Source: a virus. Taken from it: DNA of 64,000 bases. Numbering within the stretch: the stretch's first letter is position 1; each line of letters starts with the position of its first letter. The translations under genes were made by a program, and so were the position numbers. The stretch lies in IMG/VR virus record IMGVR_UViG_3300042863_002274; one strand, written 5' to 3'. Below are positions 1-48,252 of the stretch, in pieces. The notes under the pieces are model-generated. The model saw only the letters and a program-made list of their open reading frames with translations, had not been told where the DNA came from and did not search any database.

Positions 1-242
1 GTTCGAATAGGGTTTCCGACCGTGCTACCTGCAGCTTCCAGTAGGAAGCAAATTCTTCCAGCAGTCAGCAGGGGCTTTCCATCACCGCCCGCCTGGGTTA
101 TCGGTATTCCGTTTCCGAATGCACTATTTCGTGCTGCTTCGTTGAGAAAAAGAGAAACGGACTGGTCCATTAAATATTGATTTATATCTGCCGCATAAGC
201 TATTTCGCCAGATAAAAAAAGTTTTACTCCTGCGCCAGCCAT
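1..242 (-). CDS. Tail fibre/minor tail protein, N-terminal part (runs off window)
   Basis: Not in ORF track; ATG at 242 after AGGAG RBS reads MAGAGVKTFLSGEIAYAADINQYLMDQ..., resembling actinophage tail-fibre N-termini; follows baseplate genes. Confidence 0.65.
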   Translation of the reverse strand, partial: MAGAGVKLFLSGEIAYAADINQYLMDQSVSLFLNEAARNSAFGNGIPITQAGGDGKPLLTAGRICFLLEAAGSTVGNPIR

Positions 243-281
243 TATTTTTCTCCTAAATTGCTCATAGATGAGTGTATCATT

Positions 282-1493
282 TTAACCAAACCTGAAATTG
301 TCTAGTGCACCCAACGTTGGGTCGTCAAACGAAAAGAAAAATTCGTCAAACGTTTGCACAGTTATTGAATAGCCCATTGGTTTTGCCCAGTTAACCGATT
401 GGGTCACCAGCGAGCTGACTTCTCCTTCTTCGGCGTCCGGCGTCTCGTTGGCAAGGGTTGCAACTCGGATTGCAAAGGGGTCGCCTAGATATCTCGGCAA
501 TACTGCTACCGACAAAGTGCTAGGGTTTCCGTCTTTTGTCTTTATCAGAACCTGTCGCGCTGCTTCTAGAATGGCATTCCTGCTTCCTGCAGCCGCTCCG
601 TAATGCGAAGTACTTAATTGCCATTCAAGAAAATCTCTTTTGATTCTGGGATTGTCAAAAAACAGTGTTCCGTCAGTTTTTGAAATATTTTGTTTTATTA
701 ACGAACCATTAAACTGAGACAGCCACGGTATGTAGTCGGTGCGCACAGAGCGAGTCGAGACAAGCGAACTAGACGCCCAATATTCAGCTACCTGTGAAGG
801 AGATTGAAGTTGTTGTTGTTCAACCCCGTACATCCTGTCGTGCTCATCTAACGTTTCCCCAGCTGCCGAGGTAAGGATGTCTAAAAGTCTGAAAAAAGGA
901 AAAGATGGATATAACTGAGAAGAGTCAACTTCAAAGTAAAAATCCGGCAAGAACGTTCTTGCTCGGCCAACAAAACGATTTTTATAAAAACCTAACTCAT
1001 GTATGAGGTGAGGAAGTGTTGCATAAATGTTTGCGCTACCCTGGCCTGAAATCGTAAACTTCATTGTTGCAGTGTGCGCATTTCCGTCGTCAGGAACAGA
1101 AGCCTGATTTGTATGAATTGCTGAATATTTACCACTATTTATGGACTGAACGTTAGGGTCGTATGAAGCAGAAGCAGAATCTATATAAAGAAGAGAAGAG
1201 ATACTAATCGGGGAGTTGGCCTTCATTTTTATATTTGCCGAGATGGCTCGTCCATTGTCTGAAAGAGTAAGAGGAATGTTATTTAAAGTTAAAACAACGT
1301 CGTTCGAAGTACTCGGTGCCAACTGCATAACGTATCTAGTATTGACAACCGCTTCTGAGCTTGTTATAAAAAGAGTTGCGTTTGACGCGGTCCAGTCGTA
1401 AGAAAGAGAAGATATACCTACGTACTCACCCTGCTGTGAGGAGAATACCAATAGTGCGTTGTTGTCTGGTAAAAGATTAAAAGTGCTGGCCAT
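282..1493 (-). CDS. Baseplate/tail protein (P2 gpI-like wedge partner)
   Basis: Immediately downstream of baseplate J; YIPWLSQFNG and C-terminal AKPMG motifs typical of gpI-like proteins. Confidence 0.6.
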   Translation of the reverse strand: MASTFNLLPDNNALLVFSSQQGEYVGISSLSYDWTASNATLFITSSEAVVNTRYVMQLAPSTSNDVVLTLNNIPLTLSDNGRAISANIKMKANSPISISSLLYIDSASASYDPNVQSINSGKYSAIHTNQASVPDDGNAHTATMKFTISGQGSANIYATLPHLIHELGFYKNRFVGRARTFLPDFYFEVDSSQLYPSFPFFRLLDILTSAAGETLDEHDRMYGVEQQQLQSPSQVAEYWASSSLVSTRSVRTDYIPWLSQFNGSLIKQNISKTDGTLFFDNPRIKRDFLEWQLSTSHYGAAAGSRNAILEAARQVLIKTKDGNPSTLSVAVLPRYLGDPFAIRVATLANETPDAEEGEVSSLVTQSVNWAKPMGYSITVQTFDEFFFSFDDPTLGALDNFRFG

Positions 1494-8918: not shown

Positions 8919-11900
8919 TATCTTCTCTGCCTGTCAGAACGTTCTTTTTCTTGAATCTTGGCCATGACCATATTGGCAATTACTTCAGGAGCAGCGTTGT
9001 TGCCATTTATTTCAAATGTATAGTAATTATTGGTTCCACCACCGGAACTAGATGATGTAGAAACTGGTGAAGGTGTTGATGTGTCACCCATGCCGGAACC
9101 AGGAACAACGTGGAGATGACGATTAGCCATGGAACCGTGGAACTCAGCAAAGCCTCCATTCGCGTGAACAAGCTTTGCGTACTGACCTAGGTTCTGTCCT
9201 GTGAGGTCATAAGCAGAACCAGTTGCGTGGTCTGAGTTTATTGAACCAAGTGCGTAATCTCTGAGAGAAGAAGTGACTGTTCTCTTTCCTGTTAGTTGAC
9301 CGTTCATAGCAGCGTGACGGCCCATTGTTTGAGAAAGTTTGCTTGTTGCAGTGTCTCCTACGCCACCCGCGCGAGGGGTAGATGTATCGTTGGCCGGCTT
9401 AAGAGTCTTGCCATCAAATACCAGACCCTTTTCCCACCATCCCGGCATTTCGCCGAGAGGGGCCTTGAAGAAGCCTTCCATATTGGTGTTAAATGTATTA
9501 ATAGCAGTTTCTAGACCTGTCGCAGAAGTAGAAAAATCAGTAGCCGCAGTAGCTATTGCGTCAAGCTTCTTTGGGTCTTCAGCAGTAATCGCTACACCGG
9601 GCCCGATGATGCTCTCAAGACCTGATGTTAAATCTGCTGCAGTTTCGCCTTTTAAGCCTTTTCTTAGTCTGTTAGTGTCTACGCCGCGCTTTGCAAGCTC
9701 TGGGTCCATTGCCTCGTCAAACGTCGAAACATCGCCCAGTATCGCTGCCAATTCTTTTGGACTCTTACTAGCGAGAGCTGCTTTCAGGGCTCCCTGGTCG
9801 ACCGTCATGTTCTTCTTGGATAGTCTTGCGCTTATTTGAGTAGCAGCTTCGCCAACCATTCCCTCTTTTAGCAAACCTTGAGATTTTATAACATCTTTAT
9901 CCCCCAAGACGGTCTTTCCCTGTCCTGCCAGGGCTCCGCCTTTTGCAAAAACCCCCCCCTCTTCTCCTTGACCAAACATTTCGTTATAGGCAAGATAGGC
10001 TTTTGTCGCATCCCCACCATTTACTGCCAGTAGTTGCGGCATCATTTGCTCAAAGGAAGCGCCAATGGCTTTTGATTTATCCGCCTTGCTTGTTCCCTTC
10101 TTACGAAGGACATCACCTAAACCGGCTACGTTCTGGTTGAGAGCGGCGCTTTTTTCTCCTGCTTCTCTGGTTTCCTTGAAGGGATTTGCTCCAGTAAGAA
10201 AAGTATCTACTAACGCATCATTCAGGGCTGCTCCGGTTTTTATGATGCCTTCAGTAAATTTTGTTAGAAGTTCGTTGTACTTTACGGTTGGGTTATAGAG
10301 GTCTATACCCAACTTTTTAGCCATTTGTTCTAGTTCTGCACCACTTTTACCAGTAGCTCTAGATAACGCATCTATTCTGGCGGTGTTTTGTTTGTCTATT
10401 TCCCCAAGTTGTTTCTGAACAGCCGGGTCAGTTTCTTTTAGCATTGTGCGCAGCGTGCCAGTCGCCTTTTTTTTCTGTGTCTTTTGGTCTTCTGCGCTTA
10501 CCTTTTTTCCTTCTGCAGTCTTGTAGTACGCCTCAAGAGCGGCTACGGGGTCTTCGAATTCCTGTCTCCCACCCGACATGTAGCTTCCGCCGGTACCTGC
10601 TATTGCGCCACTTATAGAGCTGCGAATACCGGCTTGGGTTTTTGCATAACCTGCTCCAACTCCAAGCATGGTTGCACCTTTTCCAGCCAGGCTTTGACCT
10701 TTCTGGGAAGCTTCGTAGTTTTTCTGAAATGCTGCTCCTGCGCTTTTCGTGGTCTCCATATAAAGACGCCCGAAGCTTTCCATGACTGTCGCTTTAGCTG
10801 CAGCAAGTTGAGCCTTTCCTTTATTTACGGCTCCCATTATTCCGCCGACAAGTAGACCTATTCCAGCACCAATAGCCGCGCCTTGTGGCCCAAGCATTCC
10901 GCCTAGAGCGGCTCCACCAGCAGCACCAGATATCGCACCCTTCATTGTGCCCTGAGCCTTCATGGCTCCACCTATTCCAGCAACACCAAGTCCAAGCATT
11001 GGGTTAATGGTGGCAACGGTTGCTCCAAGAGCCATGGCTCCACGCATTTCTTCTGGGGCATACTGACTTGCCATTCCAAGTCCTATTCCTACACCGGCGC
11101 GACCACCCATACTGTTGTTGAACTTCTTTGTGCCTGCTCCGAATTTACTGTCGTTACGCGTAATTCTGTTCATATCGCGGGCGTAATTTAATCTTCCCGA
11201 AAGTTTTCTCAGGCCCCCTTGCGAGTCAGTTCCTCCTTTTCTTATTCCGTCGTCGCCTTTCACGCCAAATCTTCTGTTCTTTAGTGCGTCGCGCTGTGCT
11301 TTTACATCTCTGAACTCACCTTTTTCGCTGTCGTACGCACCAGAGTTGAGGTAAGCCATTCCGCCTCTAGCGACACCAACTCCCCTATCTATGCCTGACC
11401 TGGTTTTGTTTGCTGCACGTCTAAGGTCGTTTGAAACGCCTGTTCCGATTCCGACAGGGCGAGGGTCGTTTTTGAATTCTGCAACTGAGCCCTTTTTTGC
11501 AAGTATTTGGCGATTTATTTCTTCTCTTGTAGATTCTTTAGTTATGCCAGTAATGCCTTTGCCTGTCGCAATTTGATGCAACTCGTCTCTAGAGCGACCA
11601 TTTAGTGACTGTTCGGCTCGAAAACGAGCAGACTGTGCAAGATTGTACTGAGGGTTTGGTTGAGGTTTTCCATCACGACCCATAATGGTCGGGGATGCAT
11701 ACGGGTCTTTGGGTTGCCCAAATGCCGCATATCCAGCTCCTCGTCCTATTTGCTGCCTCTTGGTAAATCTTTCTGTGTGTCTTTGGGTTGAACCACTTGA
11801 GCGAAACCCCATGCGATATCCGTCTTTAATATTTTGGGAAAATCTACGAGATGGGTCATCTCTCATTTCGCGATACGCTCCGCCTCCTATTCTTGACGAC

Positions 11901-13651
11901 GGATAAACGGACGTACCAGAACTACCAGGAGCACCACTACCTCCTGCTGACGTTGCGCCAGAAGAAAGGCGACCGGAACCGACTGGACCAGCATTGCCGA
12001 TATTTACACTGTTGGCCGTTACGTTCATGGTTTGTGTATGGGTTCCGGACTTGGGCATTAAGCGCCCCTTGACTCCGGCCAATCCTCGTCCCAAAACAGC
12101 AGCACCCATTAGTGGGGCAAGCGCTGCCCCAAGACCGCTTCCGGCTCCAACGGTCATTACTTTCGTAAGCACTTTTAATACCTGATTAAGGCCTGCTAAA
12201 AGGTCATTTATAAATGGAGCCATTTGGGCAAAGTTTTTCTTTAGGCCCATAAAGTATTCAGAAAGGGTGTCGATGATGTCGGCTATGCGTTGACCGAACT
12301 CTTCAACAAAAAAACTATTTTCTTCCAGGAGGTCCTTGAAAAGCGTAAGGTTTTGAGCGCCTCCCTTGATGGAATCCCATATCGGGTCCATGGCCTTATA
12401 TAGAACCTTTGCTCCGTCGATAAGTGGACGTGTCGCATCTAGAACAAGATTCCAACCACGCTTGAATTTTGTATACCAGTCACCGATTCTGTCGAACATG
12501 CCAACAGCAGTAGGAAGGTATTCGCGAATCATTTTCACTAGCCAGCCAGATGCTTTTTCTATAGCGCTTGCAAAGTTATTTATTCCTTCCTCTGCTCCAA
12601 AGCTGTACTGGATTGCAGCAAATACGCGCGCTAAGTCGGTTCTGACTTTGTCAAACACGCGAGCAAATGCAGTTTTTAGCGGCTCAAGAAACATGTCGCC
12701 AAAGTCCGCGAATTCGCCACGTAAACGGGTAAAGTAGCCTTTCATTTGACTAATCAAAGTATTGTTCACTGCGTCAAACTGACCGGAGACGCCACCCTTT
12801 TTAGCAAGGTCTCCAGACATCAGGAGTTCTTGAAATTGTTTCTTTGTCTTAACGTTCGCCTTTTTTAAAGCCGATTCCATCTCTGGACCTAGTTTTTTTG
12901 CCTCAGTTATGACGTCACTGATGTTTTTCTTTTTATCAGAAAGTGCGGCTATAACTACAGATACTTGCTCAAGCCCCTTGGCTGGGTCTTGACCTGCTGA
13001 ACCAAAGTCCATCAAAGCCTTGATTGCACCACCACTTTGATTAATTTGGCTGGTATTCATTGATTTTGACATATTTCCATATGCCTTATTGAGTGCTTCT
13101 ACGCCAAGGCTCGACAGAGCGGCATCGGATTGCAGGTTTCTCATCGCCATGCGGGTCTGATTCATCGCTGACCCAAAAGCTGGAGCACCCTTGCCCCTGT
13201 AGGCATATATTGCTGCTTGTTGTTCTCGTATGGCTGCCGAGGCTGCAGATATTGCAACAACCACCCCCGCCGCACCTGACGCAAGCATCTGCATGGCTCC
13301 CCTATAGGCTTTGACCAGAAATTGTCCTGCAGCAAATAATGCATGGATGCCAATCATTGTTGCGCCAAGTATTGCCATTTCGACAACAACACCCTTAACT
13401 GACATTCCCAAGAACTTGGTCAGGCCTTTGCCTGCCATCTTTGCGCCTTTGTCTATGGCGTCAAAACTTCTCTTCCAGCCACTGGTCATGCTGTTTAGGC
13501 TTTTGTTTGTGCTGTTGGCAAACTTGTCTGTTCTACCGCTAGAAAGCTTGTCTAGTCTTTTGTGTAAAACTGCAATTTCTGCAATCGCACGGCGAATTTC
13601 ACCAGTTTGGGCATCAAATTTAATTTTTACATTAATATTTTCGTCTGCCAT
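8918..13651 (-). CDS. Tape measure protein with C-terminal M15-like Zn peptidase motif
   Basis: 1577 aa, Ala/Gly-rich and helical, after the tail chaperone; C-terminal TSSLR...SDHATGSAYD...RHLHV. Confidence 0.9.
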   Translation of the reverse strand: MADENINVKIKFDAQTGEIRRAIAEIAVLHKRLDKLSSGRTDKFANSTNKSLNSMTSGWKRSFDAIDKGAKMAGKGLTKFLGMSVKGVVVEMAILGATMIGIHALFAAGQFLVKAYRGAMQMLASGAAGVVVAISAASAAIREQQAAIYAYRGKGAPAFGSAMNQTRMAMRNLQSDAALSSLGVEALNKAYGNMSKSMNTSQINQSGGAIKALMDFGSAGQDPAKGLEQVSVVIAALSDKKKNISDVITEAKKLGPEMESALKKANVKTKKQFQELLMSGDLAKKGGVSGQFDAVNNTLISQMKGYFTRLRGEFADFGDMFLEPLKTAFARVFDKVRTDLARVFAAIQYSFGAEEGINNFASAIEKASGWLVKMIREYLPTAVGMFDRIGDWYTKFKRGWNLVLDATRPLIDGAKVLYKAMDPIWDSIKGGAQNLTLFKDLLEENSFFVEEFGQRIADIIDTLSEYFMGLKKNFAQMAPFINDLLAGLNQVLKVLTKVMTVGAGSGLGAALAPLMGAAVLGRGLAGVKGRLMPKSGTHTQTMNVTANSVNIGNAGPVGSGRLSSGATSAGGSGAPGSSGTSVYPSSRIGGGAYREMRDDPSRRFSQNIKDGYRMGFRSSGSTQRHTERFTKRQQIGRGAGYAAFGQPKDPYASPTIMGRDGKPQPNPQYNLAQSARFRAEQSLNGRSRDELHQIATGKGITGITKESTREEINRQILAKKGSVAEFKNDPRPVGIGTGVSNDLRRAANKTRSGIDRGVGVARGGMAYLNSGAYDSEKGEFRDVKAQRDALKNRRFGVKGDDGIRKGGTDSQGGLRKLSGRLNYARDMNRITRNDSKFGAGTKKFNNSMGGRAGVGIGLGMASQYAPEEMRGAMALGATVATINPMLGLGVAGIGGAMKAQGTMKGAISGAAGGAALGGMLGPQGAAIGAGIGLLVGGIMGAVNKGKAQLAAAKATVMESFGRLYMETTKSAGAAFQKNYEASQKGQSLAGKGATMLGVGAGYAKTQAGIRSSISGAIAGTGGSYMSGGRQEFEDPVAALEAYYKTAEGKKVSAEDQKTQKKKATGTLRTMLKETDPAVQKQLGEIDKQNTARIDALSRATGKSGAELEQMAKKLGIDLYNPTVKYNELLTKFTEGIIKTGAALNDALVDTFLTGANPFKETREAGEKSAALNQNVAGLGDVLRKKGTSKADKSKAIGASFEQMMPQLLAVNGGDATKAYLAYNEMFGQGEEGGVFAKGGALAGQGKTVLGDKDVIKSQGLLKEGMVGEAATQISARLSKKNMTVDQGALKAALASKSPKELAAILGDVSTFDEAMDPELAKRGVDTNRLRKGLKGETAADLTSGLESIIGPGVAITAEDPKKLDAIATAATDFSTSATGLETAINTFNTNMEGFFKAPLGEMPGWWEKGLVFDGKTLKPANDTSTPRAGGVGDTATSKLSQTMGRHAAMNGQLTGKRTVTSSLRDYALGSINSDHATGSAYDLTGQNLGQYAKLVHANGGFAEFHGSMANRHLHVVPGSGMGDTSTPSPVSTSSSSGGGTNNYYTFEINGNNAAPEVIANMVMAKIQEKERSDRQRR

Positions 13652-20021: not shown

Positions 20022-20579
20022 TTATCTGTCAGGATTGGGGGGTCTTTCGATAGAGACCGTAGATGACTCTAGTGAGCCAGGCGGAGCCTCAATAGGAATC
20101 CATGCTCTGGCGTAATTGTGCTCTTTAATTTTTCTCACTTTATAGAGACTTCCGTCAAGCATTAGAGAGAGTTCTTCCGAACGCATGCAAAGCATGTCTT
20201 CAAAATCTGAAATACCGTATTTACCAGAACGTCTAAGTGTTCGGATTATGTCTGATGTTTTAGGAGCCAACACATGGGAGTGTCCCCTATTGAGCCGAAG
20301 GTGCATCATCATGGCGTCCATTTTGTCAACGTCGTGGTACACGACCGGTATTTTTCCATCGCTCATAGCAAGAATTTGCGGAATATTTGTTGCCAGCAAG
20401 TATCTTTCCGAGCCGTCGATTATTTCCCCAGTGGCAAGCCTGACGTGTATCGGCTGAATGAAGCCAAACTGAGACAAGGAGGCAGAGATAACAAGCATCT
20501 CTGGACGCAGGGTGTAGGTAGCTTTCCATTCAGGAACAGAAAGCAGGGACGGTTCAACGTATTCGATTTTAATATTCAT
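20022..20579 (-). CDS. ParB/Srx-domain protein (IbrB-like)
   Basis: FGFIQPIHV...IIDGSERY and HLRLNRGH; overlaps the PAPS-reductase-like gene. Confidence 0.8.
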   Translation of the reverse strand: MNIKIEYVEPSLLSVPEWKATYTLRPEMLVISASLSQFGFIQPIHVRLATGEIIDGSERYLLATNIPQILAMSDGKIPVVYHDVDKMDAMMMHLRLNRGHSHVLAPKTSDIIRTLRRSGKYGISDFEDMLCMRSEELSLMLDGSLYKVRKIKEHNYARAWIPIEAPPGSLESSTVSIERPPNPDR

Positions 20580-28373: not shown

Positions 28374-30428
28374 ATGGGCTGGAATGCGCCTCAAAACAAA
28401 GGCTTGGGCTCACAATCAAGCAAAAATCTAGGATACGGAGCCCCCATATCCATGAACCCGTCCCTCGCTGGGAAGGCGTATCGTGACTCTTGGGACATAG
28501 AGCGCGCTTACCGCGAAGGCATGTCTAAAATCACTTGGGTCAATAGGTGTATTGACGCAATCTCGGGAAACCAAGCGCGCTTGCCGATGATTTTAAGAAA
28601 AGACAATTCAAAACATGGCGAAATTATCAAGGGGCGCGAAGCAAATCGTAATCCCCTGCTGGAGATTTTAAATAATAAAGCCAATGTCGGAGAAAACTCT
28701 TTTATTTTTAGATACAGGCTTTCTGCTCAGCTCATGCTGGGTACTCGTGGAGCTTTTATAGAAAAGATACGTGGACGTGATGGTGGAATCATTGGGCTCA
28801 ACCTTCTTCCACCTCAGTCAACAGCACCAATACCAGACCCTAAAACGTTTGTTTCCGGCTACGAAGTGCAAATGCCTTATGGTGAGAAAATAATACTCAA
28901 GCCAGAAGATGTTTGCTGGGTTAGACGCCCTCACCCTATCGACCCTTACCTATCGCTTACGCCTCTTGAGGCAGCAGGTGTGGCCATAGAAATCGAAAAC
29001 CTCGCCAAGATTTACAACAGAAACTACCTTCTTAACGACGGACGTCCGGGTGGACTTTTAGTTGTTAGGGGTGAAATTGATGAAGACGATAAAGAAGAAC
29101 TGCGTAACAGATTCAGAGGAAACCTAGCAAGGGCTGGACACACTACGGTCATTGCGGCAGACGACGGAGTTGACTTTGTTGACACTTCTGCAAACCCACG
29201 TGATGCTGCCTACGTCCAGATGCGACAGATAACTAAAGAAGAAATACTTTCTGCATTTGGTGTTCCTGAGTCTGTTATTGGTAATGCCTCTGGCAGAACC
29301 TTCAGTAACGCTTCAGAAGAGATTCGTGTTTTCTGGATGGAGACAATGCTTCCCCATCTGGAGCCAATATCTAGAGCGTTAGACGAACTTGATGAAAAGT
29401 ACTATCTAGATTTTGACACGACCGAAGTTCCAATCCTCATGCTTTATAAGCAAGAGCGAGACAAGTATTTACTACAGGAATTCCAGTCTGGATTGATTAG
29501 CGCGAACGAGTACAGAACTGGCTCGTCACGCAAGGAAGTAGATGCCGACTTGGCTGACTCGCTTCTTCAGAATCCAAACCTTATTCCTATTGCGAACACG
29601 AAAAAGAAGATGGAAGAAGGCCAGGCTCAGATTCCTGGGGCTCCTGGGGCTCCTCCGGGAATGCCGGGAATGCCAGAAATGCCAGGGGTACCACCTGGAA
29701 TGCCTACTCCTGTTCCTCCAATGGCAGAAACCATTCCTTTGGACACAAATACTATGCAAGGTGCAATGGCCGAAGCAGGTATGGCGGGAGGAGAATTGGC
29801 TCAAACCACCATTCCTACCGAGGCACTTGGTGGACTTCCACAGCCAATGACTGTTGCGTCTTCTCCTAGCAATCAAATTCAAGTAAAAGAACTGATTGAC
29901 AAGAGCGAACAGTCAATCGAAAGATGGACCGAAATTCTTGCAAGAAGCGTTGAGCGCGTAGCGGAAAGACAGCAAAGAGTAGTGCTTGAAAAAGCTAGCG
30001 GCTTAAAGTCTAAAAAAGCCTTGATGCACGGAACCCTTGATGTTGACTCGGTTTTGTCAATTGAGACATGGAATAAGCAGATAGAGGAAGACATCCGTCC
30101 GGTCGTTTCTTCTATTATTAGCGATTCTTTTGAGTCGCGAGTAAATGAAGCATCTGAAAAGGGAGTAAAAGTAAAAGCTCTCCCAGTTAAGGACCTTCGC
30201 GCGATGGTTGATGCTCACGTTTCAAGAATTAAAAGAATAAATGAAGCGAATTTTTCAGAAATTAATTCACTTATGATTAAATCTTTTGAATACGCAGACG
30301 AAGAAAGACGATATTCGTTCTTTAGAGATGGGTTGGTGGAAATGTACACCGACTTCTTCGCTTATGGTCAATATCAGCTGGCCGAAAACGAGGCTCGTTC
30401 CGCTTGGAACTTTGGTCAAACTGTTTAG
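28374..30428 (+). CDS. HK97-type portal protein with C-terminal extension
   Basis: WVNRCIDAI, LSLTPLEAA, NDGRPGG and ILSAFGVP; Pro/Met/Gly-rich linker and MuF-like tail. Confidence 0.93.
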   Translation: MGWNAPQNKGLGSQSSKNLGYGAPISMNPSLAGKAYRDSWDIERAYREGMSKITWVNRCIDAISGNQARLPMILRKDNSKHGEIIKGREANRNPLLEILNNKANVGENSFIFRYRLSAQLMLGTRGAFIEKIRGRDGGIIGLNLLPPQSTAPIPDPKTFVSGYEVQMPYGEKIILKPEDVCWVRRPHPIDPYLSLTPLEAAGVAIEIENLAKIYNRNYLLNDGRPGGLLVVRGEIDEDDKEELRNRFRGNLARAGHTTVIAADDGVDFVDTSANPRDAAYVQMRQITKEEILSAFGVPESVIGNASGRTFSNASEEIRVFWMETMLPHLEPISRALDELDEKYYLDFDTTEVPILMLYKQERDKYLLQEFQSGLISANEYRTGSSRKEVDADLADSLLQNPNLIPIANTKKKMEEGQAQIPGAPGAPPGMPGMPEMPGVPPGMPTPVPPMAETIPLDTNTMQGAMAEAGMAGGELAQTTIPTEALGGLPQPMTVASSPSNQIQVKELIDKSEQSIERWTEILARSVERVAERQQRVVLEKASGLKSKKALMHGTLDVDSVLSIETWNKQIEEDIRPVVSSIISDSFESRVNEASEKGVKVKALPVKDLRAMVDAHVSRIKRINEANFSEINSLMIKSFEYADEERRYSFFRDGLVEMYTDFFAYGQYQLAENEARSAWNFGQTV

Positions 30429-41082: not shown

Positions 41083-44000
41083 ATGGTGGATGCCCCTATA
41101 AATAGGGAAAGAATCGTAGTTTCGGCGCGGCTTATCGTGCCTTTGTCGTGCTGCGGTGGATTCAACGAAAAAGCACTTCGCTTTAGGCAGTCAATAAATT
41201 CTTCTGTATCTACTGGAAGACTAGAGCCAGAACTTGCATTAAAAGCAGTCGGTGACGTTTTTAGTTTAAGAAAAAAAACAGCCGAAGATACTGATAATAA
41301 AAAAAGAGAATTCACTGGAGACACTCGTCCCGGTGTTGCCTCAAATGAGTTCGGCTATCGCTGGGACAAATCAGCCAAGTGGGAACCAGGCTCTCGTCTT
41401 GTCATAAGCCCGTCGTATACGTCGCGCATGGGAATGGGAACCATGCCGAACGTGGGTTGGATTCCTAGAGACGAAAATCAACCAAAGTCTTTTCAGGAAA
41501 TGATTTCGAGAATTCAATCAGAACCTCAGATTCAGTTACGAAAATTTAAAGTAAATCCAAAAACTGACGACATAATCCCTGAGTCAGAAAAGATAATTGA
41601 CCCTTTTGCTATTTCTTCCGGCATGACCATGGAAGAAAGACGAAATGCTCAAAGAAAATATCAAATCGATAATCCTGAAGAAAAAAGACTTCCAGGCGCG
41701 AGTCTTGAATCACGAGTTCCGGGAGGCTCTCTTTTAAGTAGAGCAGCAGCTGTTTTTGGTATCCTGAGAGACGAGAACAACAAGTTTCGATGCCCTCCAG
41801 GAACTCCGGCAGCAAATCAGTTCACTGACGCAACTGGTTCCAACTGCTTCGGTTTTAGTGCTTCAAAGTTTTCACGTTTCGCAGCAAGGGAAGCAGCCAG
41901 ACTTACGGCAGAAGGCGAATACGAGGGGTTGAGAACAAACGCTAATGCTTTTTTTGGTTACCTATACGGCGGCAGTCAACAAGCAAGAGGCGTTGCAAGT
42001 CCAGAGTTTATTTCCCGATGCGCATACTGGGAAGACCTTTATGGAGACAAATTAAAGCCGCCTTCATGGCGCGACACCCCTGTCACAGAAAATCTTCGTC
42101 TGTTCAAAAACGGAGCAATACGTGCACAGGACGATATTGCGAGACAAAAAGCCTCAGCAGTACGTATCTATGATGCTTTAGGAATCGACCCCAGTGACCC
42201 AAATGCTCATTTCCAGGCTGTCGAAAAATTACAGAAGATGCATGTTGATAGTGACGGTGCTGCTGGATGGGACTTAAAGATTTTAAACACTTCTTCTGGT
42301 GGAGACGCATCTCGTCTAACTGATTTAGAAGTCAGAGAGTTTACTGAAGCAAGACTTAAATCAGTTTCAGGGTGGAATCGTTTATCAAACGAAGAACAAA
42401 AAAGACTTATTGATTCTGACATTAGAAGGTATCAAGAGACAGAACGAGCAATGTTCGAAACACTCTTGGACCAATTCATGCAAAATCCATCAACAGCGAG
42501 AGTGCTTGGAAGAGTTGAATATAACTTTTTATCTGATGACGAAGCTGGAACAGGAATGTACAGAGATGCCCCCTCTATTGTTCCACGATTAAAACCAGAC
42601 GGAACACCAGTTCTTGACAAAGCCGGCAACCCCGTAATGGGCAAAGTTCCCGGAGAACTACGTAGCGTTATTCATATAAACATGAAAGAAATTCTACAAA
42701 ATCAAGAAACAATGCTTCCAAACATGGGACCAGATGAAAGATTGGCAATTTCTGCGATTGGCGCACGAAGCGAAGCCGAAGGTCGTTTAGCGGTTGCAGA
42801 TTTTCTTGTCAACGTAGACCATACCGCAAGAGGAATGGCTGGACTAATTGATGGTGTCTACTCTTTCTCTAGTCACATCATGCTTCACGAGCACGCACAT
42901 AGTATTCAGCTTCAAGTATTCATGGCGAAAATTCAAGAACAGATAGACAGCAAAGGTTTCATATCTGTTCCCATAGTAGACAGAAACGGAATCGTTAAAG
43001 GGACAAGAAACGTAGACTCAATCTACAGACTGTCCGGCGATGACGTTATGGCGATAATGACCGACGTAGCGGACGACATAAACCTGGATTCCTTAAAAGA
43101 CGCCATGGAGCGCATCAAATCTGTGGCACCTCTTGCTGGAGCGTATCCAAGAGATGCATACAAAGAAGGCTCAGAGGTTTGGGCTCTTGAAGTAGCAGCA
43201 GAACTACACGCCCTTCGCGCGAGAGGCATAATATACGGAGACGACATTGACGCAGCTTTAGCCTTTATGGACGACATAGGCGATAGTAGAGCGTCGATTG
43301 ACAGAGCTCTTGGTGACGAGACCGCAGCGCTTGTTGACATGGACGACGTGTTCACTATTCGTCCAGACTCCGTCGTTCCGGACGGCATGCCGGAAGAATC
43401 CATAACAGAAGCGCTAGGGGACAGGGACGAACGCATTGCTTCTGCTCTTCGTGAGGAAATAAAACAATTCAAGACGGGATTCAAAGACCTTCCTGAAGAT
43501 GAAATGATTTCAGAAGCTGCAATTATTGAATCTCAGAGAGATGCTTCAAATAACACGTTAAAGAAACTTAATGATTTCGAGATTGACCCGTCCCTGCCTG
43601 AAGACGAGAAAGAGTCAATAAGGGGATATCTAGAGAATCTTAAGAAGCAAACGCAAATGGAATTGGACTTCCACGACACTAGATACAACGAAGCATCAAA
43701 AGCGTGGAGAAAAAAGTACGGCATCGGAGCTAGAGGAGAAAAAGACAGATTTAAAGAATCCGTTAAGGCAGTCCGTGAAAGAGAAGGACTGTTTGATGAT
43801 GTTGAAATTGAAGAACTTGCAAAAATAGCAGCTCTCGACGACCTTCGTAAGTCTGTAGAAAAAATGCCAGAGAAGAAGATAATTCGACGCCTGGCTGATG
43901 ACGAAATATACCTAAGCACTCTTGACCCATCTTCCGACGAGGCTAAAAACCTAATTGAAAAGATTGACGTCATAAAAGAGCAGTATGTACAAAACATGCG

Positions 44001-47000
44001 TGACGCAGGAGACAAGTCGACGACTGCCAAATTAAAGAAAAACCTAGACCAGAGTGTTAAGGATTTAATTTCTCCTCCAGCAAAAAAGAACGTGTCCTTA
44101 AAGAGCAAGCAAGAAGCAAAAGACCACGCAACAAAAGAACGTCGCCGGGTTCGCGGAACTGCAGAGCAGAAAAAAGCAGTCAAAGAACTCGGAGACATTG
44201 CATCTTCGGACGTAGGACAACTGCTTGACCCTGCGGCTCAGACCAGGGCCGGAAGAGCAATAAACAAAAGAAACGCCAGAATAAAGAGATTGGGACTTAC
44301 GGTTGATGAAAAATCATCTGAAGAAGGCGACGTTGTCCAGCAAGTTCAAAATTTGCTAATTCCAGTCATGGAAGTAATCGACGGAACGTCTATTGCTGAC
44401 CCGTTCGAGATAGAAACAGTTATTGATTTCGATTCAGGAGTTCTACGAGGAAAAATTGAAGGCAAAGAAATTGAAATGCCTCAATTTGTTTCCGGCAAGG
44501 TTCTGACGACGAAAACAAAAAAGCTGGACATGCCAGAAAAAGGAATTCGCGACAAAGAAACTGGGAAAACCGCTCGCCGCGTAGTTGTACAGGTTCGCGA
44601 GGGAGACAGAGGCCTCTTTCCTTCAGCAGGAGAAGACGACCAACGCTTTGTTGCTCCACCTGGACGCCTTCGCATTACGGGGATAGACCCCGACGGAACA
44701 GTAAGAGCAGAGTTGTCTTATCAAAAAGACTCTGTTGAGGTCATTGACTCCATGGCATACAGTTTGGAGACAAACAAAACTGATGCAATTTGGGCGCAGA
44801 GCCACGGTAAAAAAATCAAAGCAGTAGCAGACAAGTACGTTAACTCGCGCCGTGAATCAGGTAAGGAATCTACGGGTTCAAGAAGTGATTACGATTCCGT
44901 CTCAGAAACCTCAAGCAAAACAGTTGTAGACGAGGTTGTGGACGCTGGTGGTTCTTTCGGAGAAGGTTTTGACGAACTACCCCCTCACTTGTCGTCTGAT
45001 GACTCAAGTTCCCGCTTGTCTTCTGGAAAGAAAGACGTACTGGGCGCTCCCGCTACGCGCAAGCAAAGAACAGAATTAAGAAATAAGTCAATGTCTTCTC
45101 AGGTTAGGGAAGTTAAATCCATTCTTGGAGGAGGACAGGGGGACTCGGCTGACCCACTGTCAAGGGGTGACATCCACCCAGACGTTGCTCGTTTAATCGC
45201 CGATACTCCAGAAGAAGACCTGTTAGCAAGAGCCGAGAATACTGCATACAGAATGCATGAAGGTTTCGATAGAAGAGTACGTGTTCGCGCAACAGATGAC
45301 GACATTGAGAGACTTTCTTCCACGGGCTCCATAAGGTCCCCGTTTGCTTCTCCAGACGATGAAGCAAAAAGAACATCACGCAGAGCGCAAAGATACTCAG
45401 GAATGGGTCCAGACGAGCGCTCTTCAAGACTGTCTTCCGGCCGAACTATTGATTCTTCAGAGAATTTAGCTGAAAGAAAAAGGCAAGAAAAAGAAGTTGC
45501 AGTTAAGGCTTTTGAAATATTTGACAAAGTCCTTAACGCCGACGGAAAAAACTTAGACGACATGTCCGAAGCAGAACTCTCTGCGTCTTTCGGTGGGAAA
45601 GTAAAGAAATCTAAGAGAAAATCAGTAAGTGCTACAAACGACTCGCTTTATGAAGTGGACGACGTGCCGACAGCTATTGCGTTAATGATGTTGGGGCATC
45701 ACGTTGCTGTTAAAGACCAGGACCTAAGATTGACCGAGCAATCACAAAAAGCATTTGAAGAAGAAGTTAAAAATGCTGCAAAGAAACATATTGACGCCCA
45801 AAACCCTCACCCTAAATGGGTTCAGTATCAAGAACAGTATAAAAAAGATTCTCCAGATTTAGACTATGGAGACCCTGCAGTTGTCAAGGAAATGGAAAAG
45901 AACTACGTAGACAGCTATCAAGCAGACCTTTGCGCTTTGTATAGTCCGGCACAAAACTTGCTGTGCTCGGGGCATATCGGTATTGATAGAGAAAAAATGC
46001 CTCAGACAAACGGAAGGTCTGCAGGCTACGATACTGTCGCGGTAAGAGCGCTTAAAGCCGGAGAAGCCGCCGGAAAGTTTGAACCTGCAAAGACTATAAA
46101 AAGAAACGCTGCAGTAGACGCAGAGTTCGCAGAAGAACTTAATGCAGCAGTAATTAAAGCCAACGCTGGTCTAGTCAAAAAGGGTAAACCAGAATTAACA
46201 GACGAAGAGATTTCAAAAAAACTTTATGAGATAGTTTCAGAAAAACATTCATTAAGGAATCAATTTGGGGACAAAACACAAGAACAACACAAGGGTGATT
46301 CTTACGACAAAATGTCTGATGCTTCGAAAAATTGGCTATATGAAAACACTGACTGGAACGACACTGAAGTAAACTTGGAGACACCATTCATAGAATGGCT
46401 AAATGGAGTTATTGAGCCAGAAAACGGCGAACCTTCGGTAATCCTTAAAGAGGTAAATCCTGGTGATTATGCTCCATCACAGCAGCAGCTAGTTGCATCA
46501 AAAGTAGACGGTACCGCTAGGCAAATACAAGAAAAAGCCATAGAAGTTGCCGAGGGCATAAGAGCTGATAATCCTGGAATATCGGACGAAGACTTTAGAA
46601 CAAAATACCTAGAAGAAATGAAAAAGCAATGGTTTATGCAGCCCATCCTTACTGCAAGTGATGGGTTTATTGTTGACGGTCACCATAGGTGGGCAGGAAT
46701 AAACGTAGGAAACAGTTCACTTTCGGAAGAATTACGACTCCCTTTGAATGTTAATGAAATACAAACGGACATAATTGAAGCTTTGACCCTAGGAAAAATC
46801 TTCCAAGACGCTTGGGGTATTAAAGAAGCGCGCCTTGGAGCTGAAAACAAGTGGAAAGAGGGAGAAATAACCGACATTAGTAAAAACGAAATATCTCAAC
46901 TCATGGACGGTTTGACCAAAAACGTGGGCACCCTTGTGGACGAAAAGTACGCAGAAGGAAATTTTGTTCAGCTTGGCTCGATTGGTCTTTCAAACAATCC

Positions 47001-48252
47001 AGACTACGCAGCACGAGCCAAGGAAAGACAGACTAGTGCTCTGACAAGAAGACCCGGCCCAGCAGCAAGAGCTCGTGAACTAGAGCTTGATGCAGCCATT
47101 CGTGATGCAGGGAGACAACGTTCGCCAGATGCTCCCGCGGAAAGAGAATCTGTTGGCAGATTGGCAAAAATGCGTAAAGGAAAGAGACTTAGTAGTGGAA
47201 AGACTATCGATGCTCCCGCTTCAGGCAAGACGGTAGGAATGTCTCCTAAAAACTACGCAAGCGAATATTATTCAAGAATAGGTCTACCAAGCTCTCTTGA
47301 CCCAGACATGATGCCAGTAAGTGGATATCTCGTTCATAAATCTCACATAGATGCAAAACGTGCTCAGATTACAAAAGGCGGAATGCCTGGAAATCTCAGA
47401 CCAGATGGTGTGTTTGAAGTAGGGGACGAAGATTTAGTTGGAGACGGCCTAACGGCCTTGGGTGATATGGAAATAGTTTTGCGCCCTGGAGTGTCAAACC
47501 GGGTCGCTTACGGACGAGGCAATGCTCTCACTTCGGCTCACAGGCCCGTAATGCTTAACTCACGTAACAGGGACGACGTAGCTGACGCAATCCTTAATGC
47601 CGACGGAGTAAACGCTGAAGAAACAAAACGAGAAGCCCTTTTACACATGCTCTCTTCTTCTTTGAATAACGATTTTTCAAACGCAAACGCATCAAGAAGC
47701 TCTAGTGGAAAAATGCCATCTTCGTTCGACAAGAAACTACCCGAAGGCTCCACCAGGGAACCTTTTGAGGCTCAGATTTTGGGCGGATTTGACGTTGCTG
47801 ATATCGAACAAATAAACGTTCCGTTGAGCAAGATTGAGGCCGCCTCGGCGAAAGAAGACATTTCCGACGTTGTTGATGCCGTATCGATTGCTGACAAGTT
47901 AAGAAAAGCCGGATTTTCTCAAGAAGAAATTGAATACTTTTACTCTATGGGCGGGGGACAATCGTTAGATACAGCAAGCATGTCTATGCTGCGTAAATAC
48001 AGAGCGTCACAAAAGATGAAAGACGACTTTGCCAAGCGTGGTCTGAATAATGTCAAGTTTGCTCACCCGAATGGTTTCAATATTGAAGACGCTCGTTCTC
48101 ACTCTAAGAGCGCCAAAGCAGGCCAGTCTGTTGAGTCAACCCTCAAGGACTCTATAGCTGAGGAAATTATTGCAGCAGCGAAAGACTTGCTCAAAGAAAT
48201 GAAAAAAACAAACAAGCCAAAAGTTACATCTATATTCGGAGGAAAACTATGA
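41083..48252 (+). CDS. Giant polyvalent protein: zincin, ART-like, ParB/Srx and DUF3626-like domains
   Basis: HEHAH (42886)..EVAAE; FVSG..VVVQVREG..PPGRLRI; PSQ..PILTASDGFIVDGHHRW (46675); PVSGYL..EAQILGG..DIEQI. Confidence 0.75.
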   Translation: MVDAPINRERIVVSARLIVPLSCCGGFNEKALRFRQSINSSVSTGRLEPELALKAVGDVFSLRKKTAEDTDNKKREFTGDTRPGVASNEFGYRWDKSAKWEPGSRLVISPSYTSRMGMGTMPNVGWIPRDENQPKSFQEMISRIQSEPQIQLRKFKVNPKTDDIIPESEKIIDPFAISSGMTMEERRNAQRKYQIDNPEEKRLPGASLESRVPGGSLLSRAAAVFGILRDENNKFRCPPGTPAANQFTDATGSNCFGFSASKFSRFAAREAARLTAEGEYEGLRTNANAFFGYLYGGSQQARGVASPEFISRCAYWEDLYGDKLKPPSWRDTPVTENLRLFKNGAIRAQDDIARQKASAVRIYDALGIDPSDPNAHFQAVEKLQKMHVDSDGAAGWDLKILNTSSGGDASRLTDLEVREFTEARLKSVSGWNRLSNEEQKRLIDSDIRRYQETERAMFETLLDQFMQNPSTARVLGRVEYNFLSDDEAGTGMYRDAPSIVPRLKPDGTPVLDKAGNPVMGKVPGELRSVIHINMKEILQNQETMLPNMGPDERLAISAIGARSEAEGRLAVADFLVNVDHTARGMAGLIDGVYSFSSHIMLHEHAHSIQLQVFMAKIQEQIDSKGFISVPIVDRNGIVKGTRNVDSIYRLSGDDVMAIMTDVADDINLDSLKDAMERIKSVAPLAGAYPRDAYKEGSEVWALEVAAELHALRARGIIYGDDIDAALAFMDDIGDSRASIDRALGDETAALVDMDDVFTIRPDSVVPDGMPEESITEALGDRDERIASALREEIKQFKTGFKDLPEDEMISEAAIIESQRDASNNTLKKLNDFEIDPSLPEDEKESIRGYLENLKKQTQMELDFHDTRYNEASKAWRKKYGIGARGEKDRFKESVKAVREREGLFDDVEIEELAKIAALDDLRKSVEKMPEKKIIRRLADDEIYLSTLDPSSDEAKNLIEKIDVIKEQYVQNMRDAGDKSTTAKLKKNLDQSVKDLISPPAKKNVSLKSKQEAKDHATKERRRVRGTAEQKKAVKELGDIASSDVGQLLDPAAQTRAGRAINKRNARIKRLGLTVDEKSSEEGDVVQQVQNLLIPVMEVIDGTSIADPFEIETVIDFDSGVLRGKIEGKEIEMPQFVSGKVLTTKTKKLDMPEKGIRDKETGKTARRVVVQVREGDRGLFPSAGEDDQRFVAPPGRLRITGIDPDGTVRAELSYQKDSVEVIDSMAYSLETNKTDAIWAQSHGKKIKAVADKYVNSRRESGKESTGSRSDYDSVSETSSKTVVDEVVDAGGSFGEGFDELPPHLSSDDSSSRLSSGKKDVLGAPATRKQRTELRNKSMSSQVREVKSILGGGQGDSADPLSRGDIHPDVARLIADTPEEDLLARAENTAYRMHEGFDRRVRVRATDDDIERLSSTGSIRSPFASPDDEAKRTSRRAQRYSGMGPDERSSRLSSGRTIDSSENLAERKRQEKEVAVKAFEIFDKVLNADGKNLDDMSEAELSASFGGKVKKSKRKSVSATNDSLYEVDDVPTAIALMMLGHHVAVKDQDLRLTEQSQKAFEEEVKNAAKKHIDAQNPHPKWVQYQEQYKKDSPDLDYGDPAVVKEMEKNYVDSYQADLCALYSPAQNLLCSGHIGIDREKMPQTNGRSAGYDTVAVRALKAGEAAGKFEPAKTIKRNAAVDAEFAEELNAAVIKANAGLVKKGKPELTDEEISKKLYEIVSEKHSLRNQFGDKTQEQHKGDSYDKMSDASKNWLYENTDWNDTEVNLETPFIEWLNGVIEPENGEPSVILKEVNPGDYAPSQQQLVASKVDGTARQIQEKAIEVAEGIRADNPGISDEDFRTKYLEEMKKQWFMQPILTASDGFIVDGHHRWAGINVGNSSLSEELRLPLNVNEIQTDIIEALTLGKIFQDAWGIKEARLGAENKWKEGEITDISKNEISQLMDGLTKNVGTLVDEKYAEGNFVQLGSIGLSNNPDYAARAKERQTSALTRRPGPAARARELELDAAIRDAGRQRSPDAPAERESVGRLAKMRKGKRLSSGKTIDAPASGKTVGMSPKNYASEYYSRIGLPSSLDPDMMPVSGYLVHKSHIDAKRAQITKGGMPGNLRPDGVFEVGDEDLVGDGLTALGDMEIVLRPGVSNRVAYGRGNALTSAHRPVMLNSRNRDDVADAILNADGVNAEETKREALLHMLSSSLNNDFSNANASRSSSGKMPSSFDKKLPEGSTREPFEAQILGGFDVADIEQINVPLSKIEAASAKEDISDVVDAVSIADKLRKAGFSQEEIEYFYSMGGGQSLDTASMSMLRKYRASQKMKDDFAKRGLNNVKFAHPNGFNIEDARSHSKSAKAGQSVESTLKDSIAEEIIAAAKDLLKEMKKTNKPKVTSIFGGKL

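Follow-up and report, generated by a model that had tools for sequence, protein, structure and literature searches.

How a protein domain can hold several hundred residues of another module, and whether those residues would have to be removed, is the question raised by a viral DNA in the IMG/VR collection (record IMGVR_UViG_3300042863_002274, an 83.9-kb contig). In the 64,000-nucleotide stretch analyzed here (the window), the near-identical peptides RLSSGRTID (from nt 45427) and RLSSGKTID (from nt 47185) enclose 586 aa that contain GIDREKMPQ (aa 1633), APSQ (aa 1797), and DGHHRW (aa 1865). A sequence-only reading had proposed that a ParB/Srx module lies here between the two halves of one DUF3626-like domain and that its duplicated peptide ends imply either excision with reassembly or module swapping at the motif. 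Our analysis favors the nested arrangement and replaces the duplicated ends with a recurring border tag.

A giant protein among the head genes

Both peptides and the enclosed GIDREKMPQ, PSQ, and DGHHRW motifs are located in one ORF of 2,389 aa (P0001; 41083 to 48252), as had been claimed. It lies on the plus strand, to which all coordinates below refer. The ORF belongs to the head-gene block: it is found 10.7 kb downstream of the portal gene (28374 to 30428; PHROG E value, 3e-64), and immediately 5′ of it are the genes for a 2,916-aa polyvalent protein and a 560-aa product. The 2,916-aa neighbor has a Peptidase_S78 (prohead protease) domain at its head (aa 32 to 175) and an MPTase-PolyVal domain (PF18818; E value, 8e-39), along with ArdC-N and helicase domains. 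Within its 2,389 aa, P0001 combines a unit with the ART fold, a module with the ParB/Srx fold, and an N-terminal block bearing an HExxH motif; it thus has two features of polyvalent proteins, namely, several unrelated enzyme domains and a location among phage virion genes.

The N-terminal block (N1-N2-N3; aa 1 to 1310; 41083 to 45012) is common to all close relatives. Its HExxH motif is HEHAH (aa 602 to 606; nt 42886 to 42900), which in a 37%-identical homolog becomes HEFAH, with HExxH kept. The block, including this motif, has no Pfam match. Overall, no part of P0001 was detected by Pfam (DUF3626, ParB_N, or any other model), searches of Pfam and PHROGs with the whole protein and with five pieces of it returned nothing usable, and megablast of the gene against deposited phages gave no match.

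The flanks of the insert as parts of one ART fold

The upstream flank, M1 (aa 1320 to 1434; 45040 to 45384), consists of helices and the strand RVRVR (aa 1398 to 1402; nt 45274 to 45288), with RVRVRAT starting at aa 1398. The downstream flank, M3 (aa 2056 to 2367; 47248 to 48183), includes a C-terminal helical part; PVSGYLVH (aa 2078 to 2085) and the Glu of FEAQILGG (E2229; nt 47767 to 47769), where the mapped motif EAQILGG starts, are conserved in it. We built a profile of 420 positions from 38 contiguous homologs in which the gap between M1 and M3 is less than 40 residues. In 69 matched proteins, these 38 included, M1 and M3 form one continuous match to this profile, while P0001 matches it as two pieces that abut in profile coordinates (7 to 121 for M1 and 117 to 419 for M3), and the break falls at the same place (about 105 to 122) in every close relative. 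A MAFFT alignment had raised the suspicion of a peptide duplication of about 40 residues at both insert edges, and this was rejected since the two pieces share no more than 5 profile positions.

For structure prediction, natural sequences were folded: a contiguous homolog (P0123) and the full nested segment of P0001. The P0123 model forms a single unit (pLDDT, 90.4; pTM, 0.88). Foldseek places the Salmonella effector SopF (7dn8/7dn9) on top (E value, 4e-5; probability, 1.0), and VIA aligns SopF with 209 residues of the model (34 to 364; Z, 11.9). A Foldseek-independent search also ranks SopF first (Z, 11.2), followed by DarT (8.9) and Tpt1 (8.5). Furthermore, the alignments of more than 20 ART toxin structures to this model all begin at residues 44 to 53, which correspond to the M1 strand; for example, model residues 53 to 360 align with residues 4 to 146 of LT and residues 48 to 360 with residues 1 to 167 of pertussis toxin S1. 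Several of these structures are aligned from their own first residues (DarT, 0 to 5; pertussis S1, 1 to 3; LT, 4; CC0527, 1 to 2). In the model of the nested segment (aa 1311 to 2389; pLDDT, 84.1), both pieces are spanned by SopF (model residues 14 to 1017; 219 residues; Z, 11.2) and by DarT1 (80 to 1023). Alignment A4 did not bring the M1 segments of the contiguous homologs into the M1 columns, so the docking of M1 with M3 in the nested model rests on about 11 close relatives and on network priors. The evidence for the fold as a whole consists of AlphaFold models and alignment ranges.

PF12294 (DUF3626) did not match any part of P0001 at E values up to 10; its best sequence match was to one homolog (E value, 0.019; 14.4 bits against a cut-off of 27) and covers only M3. 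Phmmer and profile searches of PDB sequences gave no ART or ParB match, and sequence identity to SopF is 10 to 16% despite the match in fold. It is by fold and not by Pfam that the models support M1 and M3 as two parts of one SopF/DUF3626-like ART fold. The earlier view of the flanks as halves of one DUF3626-like domain is borne out in this form: they are contiguous in the 69 proteins, are predicted to fold as a unit, and are reassembled in the P0001 model.

The RVRVR strand of M1 would, according to the models, be strand 1 of the ART fold. If the first aligned residues are ungapped, R1400 (R55 of P0123) may correspond to the Arg that is catalytic in LT and in pertussis toxin. By position, the conserved R1400 in strand 1, S-G-Y (aa 2080 to 2082), and E2229 form a candidate triad of the I/H/R, Tyr, and Glu type.

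The cargo: a helical part and a ParB/Srx-like core

The cargo begins with a part (M2a and the beginning of M2b; aa 1454 to 1765; 45442 to 46377) that is mostly helical and gave no fold match. M2a carries an invariant C...C.G..GI.R..MPQ motif (aa 1617 to 1641), and this part accompanies the ParB core in nearly all mapped homologs, including free-standing proteins of 300 to 600 aa.

The core (aa 1766 to 1960; 46378 to 46962) has structure matches to Noc (7ng0; Z, 6.4; rmsd, 2.4; 74 aligned residues), ParB-CDP (6sdk; Z, 6.2), and sulfiredoxin (1xw3; Z, 5.8). The ParB/Srx matches have rmsd values of 2.4 to 2.5 over 72 to 76 residues, with Z scores near 6 that are moderate, and the eight best non-ART matches of the nested model (down to a Z of 3.6) are all ParB/Srx proteins. 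DGHHRW (aa 1865 to 1870; nt 46675 to 46692) lies at a strand-to-helix turn (model strand 552 to 555 and helix 557 to 569) and is invariant in 17 aligned homologs. No ParB-clan Pfam model matched P0001; ParBc_2 gave only subthreshold matches (E values, 0.02 to 0.09), to two small homologs, and PF02195 matched two other genes across the phage genome and not P0001. An hhalign comparison of the ParB-module alignment with the phage's own ParB_N protein found nothing. The modeled structure supports a ParB/Srx fold for the cargo core, in agreement with the original proposal, though the module is invisible to Pfam. By analogy with what has been proposed for the ParB domains of other polyvalent proteins, it is probably an NTP-dependent nuclease or nickase.

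A recurring tag at module borders

The RLSSG core of the two edge peptides is found at three sites around these modules. Copy 1 (aa 1311 to 1315; 45013 to 45027) precedes M1, and pLDDT is below 50 at model residues 1 to 7. Copy 2, in RLSSGRTID (aa 1449 to 1453; 45427 to 45441), marks the upstream cargo edge, and a predicted disordered linker (aa 1424 to 1452; 45352 to 45438; pLDDT, <50) runs into it. Copy 3, in RLSSGKTID (aa 2035 to 2039; 47185 to 47199), marks the downstream edge and is contained in a second predicted disordered linker (aa 2009 to 2053; 47107 to 47241; pLDDT, <50).

On the 83.9-kb contig, the core [RK][LF]SSG has 18 copies, all within four giant ORFs (3,009, 2,916, 2,389, and 1,577 aa) and none in any other frame or ORF. 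Shuffling of the residues of these four ORFs gave an expectation of 0.08 copies and a maximum of 2 in 2,000 shuffles. The tags in the 2,916-aa neighbor fall between Pfam domains, and among the repeated 4-mers in the giant ORFs of distant relatives, the variants RFSSG, SLSSG, and GLSSG are predominant. Some relatives lack the tag at one or both slot edges. Overall, module borders in each of this phage's four giant proteins are marked by x[LF]SSG tags. The [RK]TID that the two flanking copies share is not special: three of the next four residues are also common to one other pair among the 153 tag pairs, and at the same two sites the relative L005 (89 to 95% identical at the DNA level) has RLSSGRVIDSS and RLSSGKTTEAP, with TID not kept. 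The peptide-level duplicated ends of the sequence-only reading are thus better described as a tag with 18 copies, written in different codons at the two edges, whose TID extension is not kept in L005.

The statistics of the tag, its position at borders, and its disordered context also fit putative processing by a prohead protease at a recurring motif.

Slot content varies among relatives

All 63 split rows form one clade (support, 98), the sister of which comprises contiguous N1-N3-M1-M3 proteins. In relatives, the slot holds one ParB module, two ParB modules, a ParB module with extra content, non-ParB content, an RNase_T exonuclease, or unknown content, and insert lengths range from 265 to about 1,500 residues. 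A search for homologs without the insert, as had been suggested, did find them, with other homologs carrying different slot content. The opposite outcome, in which the flanks would not form one domain and every homolog would carry ParB, was not seen: P0123 is modeled with a pLDDT of 90.4, and ParB-less homologs exist.

The one recent cargo change that we mapped is a clean 1,524-nt in-frame indel between the window and L005. At this site, L004 to L006 carry a second ParB module that is 29% identical, and P0001 has the body of copy 1 joined to the tail of copy 2. The junction (47030 to 47037) lies within the tails of the ParB modules rather than at a tag, which does not agree with the suggested module swapping at the motif. 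In relatives with two ParB modules, both are found between one tag pair, with no tag in between.

In several phages, M3 is a separate gene with its own ATG 100 to 240 nt after the stop codon of the giant ORF; the context of free-standing M3 was taken from an alignment query (36 loci). In these two-gene forms, M1 is always within the upstream giant ORF (8 of the 8 loci inspected), and the free-standing M3 genes begin exactly at the break, at profile positions 106 to 118. Relatives thus carry no cargo, other cargo, or M3 as a separate gene, so the loop after the first strand of the ART fold is a swappable cargo slot. Since two-gene forms occur naturally, covalent rejoining of the ART halves is not needed.

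Proposed organization and alternatives

Taken as a whole, an account in which P0001 is a polyvalent protein with a nested cargo slot in its ART fold, a single insertion, cargo turnover, and tag cleavage seems likely to us. P0001 would be a virion-module polyvalent protein with a SopF-like ART fold as its C-terminal effector, and the slot would sit in the loop after the first strand-helix element of that fold. M1 would supply strand 1 and the Arg at the NAD-binding Arg/His position of ART toxins, and M3 would supply the rest, including the conserved Glu. The slot holds about 586 aa, comprising the helical part and the ParB/Srx-fold module, and it is connected through two predicted disordered linkers, one of about 30 and the other of about 45 residues, both of which contain an RLSSG tag. 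M1 and M3 may come together in one fold with the cargo nested between them, and excision would then be unnecessary for formation of the ART fold because the pieces fold with the cargo in place. The insertion presumably arose once, in the ancestor of this phage clade; later, cargo would have been gained, lost, duplicated, and replaced. M3 would have become a separate gene in some lineages, which suggests that the ART halves can function, or are at any rate maintained, when they are not covalently joined.

We regard the x[LF]SSG tags as putative sites at which a phage protease most likely cuts, the candidates being the zincin peptidase of the neighboring giant protein and the S78 prohead protease. 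After such cleavage, the ParB module would be released while noncovalent contacts kept the two ART halves together. We infer enzyme activities for the modules of P0001, as well as cleavage of the protein and its delivery into the host. A further possibility, speculative and rather unlikely in our estimate, is that the split functions as a natural split-enzyme switch. During synthesis and packing of the giant protein, the ART would be kept inert or tethered; cleavage at xLSSG would then free the ParB cargo, and the M1 stub on the giant protein would capture or activate M3 by fragment complementation. In the two-gene phages, this complementation would load the separately made M3 into the particle.

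The break might instead represent an insertion at a domain border, with M1 as a separate adaptor that always accompanies the enzyme and M3 as a complete ART. The exact start of free-standing M3 genes at the break and the confinement of the sole DUF3626 signal to M3 are in line with this, as is a DT-like H-Y-E assignment (H2085, a conserved Tyr, and E2229) that can be read wholly inside M3. However, single-domain ART structures, more than 20 of them, begin at the M1 strand, several from their own first residues, and the SopF and DarT1 alignments on the P0001 model cover M1 as well as M3. The pTM of the contiguous homolog and the retention of M1 directly upstream at every two-gene locus inspected likewise argue against an adaptor, which we consider unlikely. 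Alternatively, the split ART could be a decayed relic, destroyed as an enzyme by the insertion and kept only as structural filler of a virion protein. Many contiguous homologs conserve GRYKTTHE, which neither the split clade nor its sister group retains, and the Glu position is Asn in one two-gene M3 (P0043), as decay would predict. Yet M1 and M3 are both recognizable down to about 35% identity over the 63 split rows; in M1, H, G, D, and R-V-R are retained throughout the split clade, and in M3, P-x-S-G-Y..H, R..Y, and E-A are conserved; and M3 is maintained as a gene with its own start codon. Decay is a poor explanation for such conservation and has a correspondingly small chance of being correct.

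Two other readings concern the edges of the cargo. That eight of nine residues are identical at the cassette edges could point to insertion scars, either a target-site duplication or ends left by recombination of a mobile ParB cassette. The evidence contradicts this reading, which has very little chance of being right: the two flanking RLSSG peptides are encoded by AGA CTG TCT TCC GGC and AGA CTT AGT AGT GGA, with serine codons of the TCN type in the first and of the AGY type in the second, and the two sites share no DNA repeat. In addition, the core recurs as a tag with 18 copies over four proteins, TID is absent from a close relative, paired ParB modules share a single pair of tags, and the mapped indel junction falls within the module tails. 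Removal of the cargo by intein-like protein splicing, with religation of the ART halves, has the nested layout in its favor and nothing more. We found no match to a Hint or intein family, and the junctions (...SSRLSSGRTID and ...GKRLSSGKTID) are without the Cys/Ser/Thr and His-Asn residues of splicing, which upholds the earlier remark that no intein termini are visible. The cargo is a helical part with ParB rather than a Hint fold, and the two-gene forms make ligation unnecessary, so we give splicing almost no credence.

Comparison with known systems

ADP-ribosyltransferases are the commonest protein-modifying effectors packed in phage particles. Salmonella SopF (7DN8/7DN9), the characterized member of DUF3626, is an ADP-ribosyltransferase with an I-Y-E triad (PMC10333799, PMC6682159). 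It is the best structural match of both of our models (Z, 11.2 to 11.9; 209 to 219 residues), and the Glu-bearing strand is conserved. However, SopF is a type III effector whose fold is contiguous and which host ARF activates, whereas P0001 belongs to a phage virion module and has 586 aa nested in the fold. The cargo core resembles the N-terminal domain of the ParB/Srx superfamily (6SDK, 7NG0, and 1XW3; DdrB-like ParB of polyvalent proteins) in fold, and its DGHHRW lies at the strand-helix turn at which ParB carries an Arg-bearing box. It differs in its obligatory upstream part, in which a Cys/GI.R..MPQ motif is invariant, and in having neither a ParA partner nor an HTH domain.

Polyvalent proteins of phages and conjugative elements were described by Iyer, Burroughs, Anand, de Souza, and Aravind (2017; PMC5512222); ParB modules are a known cargo of the phage proteins, ART and ParB types are typical contents, and processing by an embedded peptidase has been proposed. 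P0001 resembles them as a giant multienzyme protein among head genes near the portal, next to a 2,916-aa protein with the MPTase-PolyVal, ArdC-N, and helicase domains of the family. The domains of the polyvalent proteins described in PMC5512222 are arranged end to end, whereas the catalytic fold of P0001 is interrupted by other modules and its joints bear a defined, recurring five-residue border tag. Term searches of PMC5512222 and PMC9503650 gave neither such a tag nor a split ART. Searches that expect contiguous domains miss such enzymes, and neither module of P0001 is detected by Pfam. Together with the border tag, the arrangement provides a testable model for the assembly, diversification, and probable cutting of giant phage effectors.

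A nested domain lies within a loop of another domain, and the host domain is built from two distant segments. In P0001, the ART catalytic fold appears to be such a host, serving as a frame with other enzymes borne in one loop. Its tolerance of variable cargo and of separation into two genes across the clade suggests a natural split enzyme with cassette exchange inside a domain. One known case of nesting is that of DNA ligases, in which the RAGNYA domain contains an inserted ATP-grasp domain (PMC9503650). Unlike nested domains of this kind, the P0001-type insert varies from 265 to about 1,500 residues, has changing multimodule content, and is attached through tagged disordered linkers, and its ART host fold also occurs naturally as two genes.

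The nested domain and its uninterrupted homologs

No part of P0001, the 2389-aa protein encoded at 41083-48252 (+), was recognized by Pfam or PHROG models. All motifs of the sequence-only reading are present, with RLSSGRTID (nt 45427, aa 1449) and RLSSGKTID (nt 47185, aa 2035) enclosing GIDREKMPQ, APSQ, and DGHHRW, with RVRVRAT upstream, and with PVSGYL and EAQILGG downstream. That reading took the upstream flank (M1) and the downstream flank (M3) for halves of one domain, and homologs without the insert do exist. With aa 1300-2389 of P0001 as the query, an exhaustive phmmer search returned 343 proteins at E values up to 0.001, and the modules of P0001 were mapped onto the best 150 of these. 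Among those best 150 of 343 matches, M1 and M3 are contiguous in 38, which have the M1 core (approximately aa 1360-1420, with RVRVR) fewer than 40 residues before M3 and no ParB between; the spacing is mostly 10 to 15 residues, and M3 starts at approximately aa 2060 in P0001 numbering. Under a looser criterion (one continuous profile match), 69 matched proteins are contiguous. P0001 matches a 420-position profile of the 38 contiguous homologs in two adjoining segments (aa 1320-1434 to profile positions 7-121 and aa 2056-2367 to positions 117-419), and the break point is identical in every close relative, irrespective of the intervening content.

In several distant polyvalent proteins (P0034-P0037 and P0041; 3290-3444 aa), M1 and M3 match contiguously, and two ParB modules of the type seen here lie farther downstream; therefore, the enzyme domain and this type of ParB travel together even when they are not nested. 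The nested form could conceivably have arisen by duplication plus deletion.

Predicted ADP-ribosyltransferase fold of the flanks

A contiguous homolog of 427 aa (P0123) was folded with a 45-row alignment (pLDDT 90.4, pTM 0.88). In Foldseek, the sole significant PDB matches of this model were to Salmonella SopF (7DN8/7DN9; E = 4e-5, probability 1.0), with DarT, OspC3/CopC, and CteC below it, and the VIA comparison with SopF gave a Z of 11.9 over 209 aligned residues (model 34..364 to SopF 120..374). In a scan of 48,161 chains made independently of Foldseek, SopF again came first (Z 11.2), followed by DarT (8.9), Tpt1 (8.5), and more than 20 further ADP-ribosyltransferase (ART) chains, including CC0527, CteC, TreX, Scabin, pertussis toxin, CARDS, LT, PltA, pierisin, PARP16, DT, and TccC3. 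SopF is an ADP-ribosyltransferase with an I-Y-E triad (PMC10333799). The label "DUF3626-like" holds at the level of the predicted fold, because SopF, the top structural match, is the characterized DUF3626 member (PMC6682159).

The ART alignments to the P0123 model all start at residues 44-53, which form the M1 strand FDRRIRVAV, and LT and pertussis S1 are aligned from their own first residues (LT 4..146 to model 53..360; pertussis S1 1..167 to 48..360). Judging from these ranges, the catalytic Arg of LT (R7) and of pertussis S1 (R9) would fall on R55 of P0123, which is R1400 of P0001. Across the split clade, M1 has retained H, G, D, and R-V-R, and the residues retained in M3 are P-x-S-G-Y..H, R..Y, and E-A. 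One free-standing M3 protein (P0043) has Asn where the family conserves Glu (E2229 of P0001) and, by its sequence, may be an inactive or re-purposed copy.

When aa 1311-2389 of P0001 were folded whole (pLDDT 84.1, pTM 0.60), SopF aligned over model residues 14..1017 (219 residues, Z 11.2) and DarT1 over 80..1023. Because these alignments span the insert, the model predicts that M1 and M3 come together across 586 aa, which agrees with the view of the flanks as two parts of one fold.

The ParB-fold cargo and its turnover

The call of a ParB/Srx module in the insert likewise finds support in the model. There, aa 1766-1960 resemble Noc (Z 6.4, rmsd 2.4, 74 residues), ParB-CDP (Z 6.2), and human sulfiredoxin (Z 5.8), and DGHHRW sits at a strand-helix turn of this fold. 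Weaker leads agree, namely, sub-threshold ParBc_2 matches in small homologs and ParB-clan neighbors in the ESM Atlas. The first approximately 310 residues of the insert, which contain an invariant Cys/GI.R..MPQ motif, gave no fold match. This motif (C...C.G..GI.R..MPQ in M2a; 45442-46182) lies approximately 230 residues upstream of DGHHRW and accompanies the ParB core in nearly all mapped homologs, including free-standing proteins of 300-600 aa. One free-standing homolog (P0140) is a fusion with an S-adenosylmethionine lyase domain (PF23780, E = 2e-9). Pfam ParB_N matches occur in two more phage genes (22494-22733 [-], E = 1.6e-11; 20301-20489 [-], E = 1e-3), whose sequences are unrelated to the cargo.

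The P0001 gene is 89% identical in DNA to that of the relative L005 up to nt 47030 and 95% identical from nt 47037. The window lacks 1524 nt of that relative (L005:8329-9852; a clean, in-frame indel) coding for a second ParB module, which L004-L006 carry in the same slot and which is 29% identical to the first. In the window's module, the body comes from copy 1 and the end from copy 2, with the joint inside the conserved NNPDYA...RQ..ALTRRPGPAARAR tail. Since the indel junction lies in the module tails and L005 has no tag between its two ParB copies, these sequences argue for cargo turnover by recombination inside modules and not at the tag, contrary to the earlier idea of module swapping at the motif.

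Forty-three viral loci carrying M3 were fetched and their ORFs mapped. In close relatives, the order N1-N2-N3-M1 ... M3 is constant, and the slot holds one ParB module, two (L004-L006, P0003, and P0012), ParB with 170-500 extra residues, non-ParB content of 265-1100 residues, or, in the two-gene relative L019 (6029-9694; seven tags in its giant ORF), an RNase_T family exonuclease (E = 2e-14). The conserved module N3 (aa 1091-1310; 44353-45012), which includes RVVVQVREGDRGLFP...FVAPPGRLRITG, occurs in every close relative and in the contiguous sister proteins and had no family match. M3 is a separate gene in L015-L023, L035, L038, L045, and L046, with its own ATG 100-240 nt past the stop of a giant ORF that retains M1 and then cargo. 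L044 is a frameshifted one-ORF form in which the M3 frame overlaps the giant ORF (L044:9881-10025); no start codon precedes the conserved M3 residues there, an FSSG tag lies just upstream, and the frameshift is either a sequencing error or real. In a FastTree phylogeny of 134 M3 segments (midpoint root), the 63 split rows all group in one clade (support 98), whose sister comprises the contiguous N1-N3-M1-M3 proteins P0038, P0045, P0049, and P0051; the remaining contiguous forms lie outside.

The RLSSG tag and a possible mechanism

The flanking peptides had been read as duplicated ends left by an insertion, a claim that did not hold. A third RLSSG copy lies at nt 45013, and [RK][LF]SSG occurs 18 times on the contig, always in four giant ORFs (3009, 2916, 2389, and 1577 aa), against 0.08 copies expected from residue shuffling (maximum of 2 in 2000 shuffles). 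The codons vary between copies (the serines of the flanking pair are TCT TCC versus AGT AGT), and no DNA repeat joining the two flanking copies was found. The corresponding sites in L005, which is 89-95% identical in DNA, read RLSSGRVIDSS and RLSSGKTTEAP, so the extra TID is not kept, and among short words in giant ORFs of distant relatives, the variants RFSSG, SLSSG, and GLSSG recur most often. Because of this abundance, codon variation, loss of TID, and spread of variants, the peptide is a selected tag and not a scar. Both flanking tags fall in the only long low-confidence stretches of the P0001 model (model 114-142 and 699-743). The tag also occurs outside the head-gene block; the 1577-aa ORF on the opposite strand (8918-13651 [-]) has KLSSGR at aa 35 and RLSSGA at aa 561. 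This ORF has a Gly-zipper match (E = 4e-4) and may encode a tape-measure-like protein.

A mechanism can be proposed for this nested layout of two folds, which occurs in a single clade with variable cargo and two-gene forms. The ART halves would fold together around the cargo and would also be able to associate without a covalent link. The tags, abundant, at the borders, and in a disordered context, are putative protease sites, where cutting would release the modules. Candidates for the cutting enzyme are either peptidase of the neighboring protein (the S78 protease and MPTase-PolyVal) or P0001's own HExxH block. Protein splicing was rejected for want of a Hint fold and of junction residues, in keeping with the absence of intein termini noted earlier. 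The main rival holds that M1 is merely an adaptor beside a complete enzyme, M3; free M3 genes start exactly at the break and M3 contains a possible H-Y-E triad, both of which favor this rival, which we nevertheless consider improbable.

Gene neighborhood and comparison with known systems

The window spans bases 2650-66649 of an IMG/VR virus record of 83.9 kb, which is judged to be approximately half complete. Three genes precede the P0001 ORF in the same orientation: a portal gene (28374-30428 [+]; E = 3e-64 to PHROG portal), a 2916-aa ORF whose domains are Peptidase_S78 prohead protease, ArdC-N, MPTase-PolyVal (E = 8e-39), and UvrD-helicase, and a 560-aa ORF. In the literature on DUF3626 and polyvalent-protein ARTs, we found no account of an ART fold interrupted by exchangeable cargo, of such a fold in two-gene form, or of the xLSSG tag. 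The components are already known: polyvalent proteins, ART folds, ParB folds, and nested domains. P0001 lies in the head-gene setting that characterizes the "polyvalent proteins" (Iyer et al. 2017; PMC5512222).
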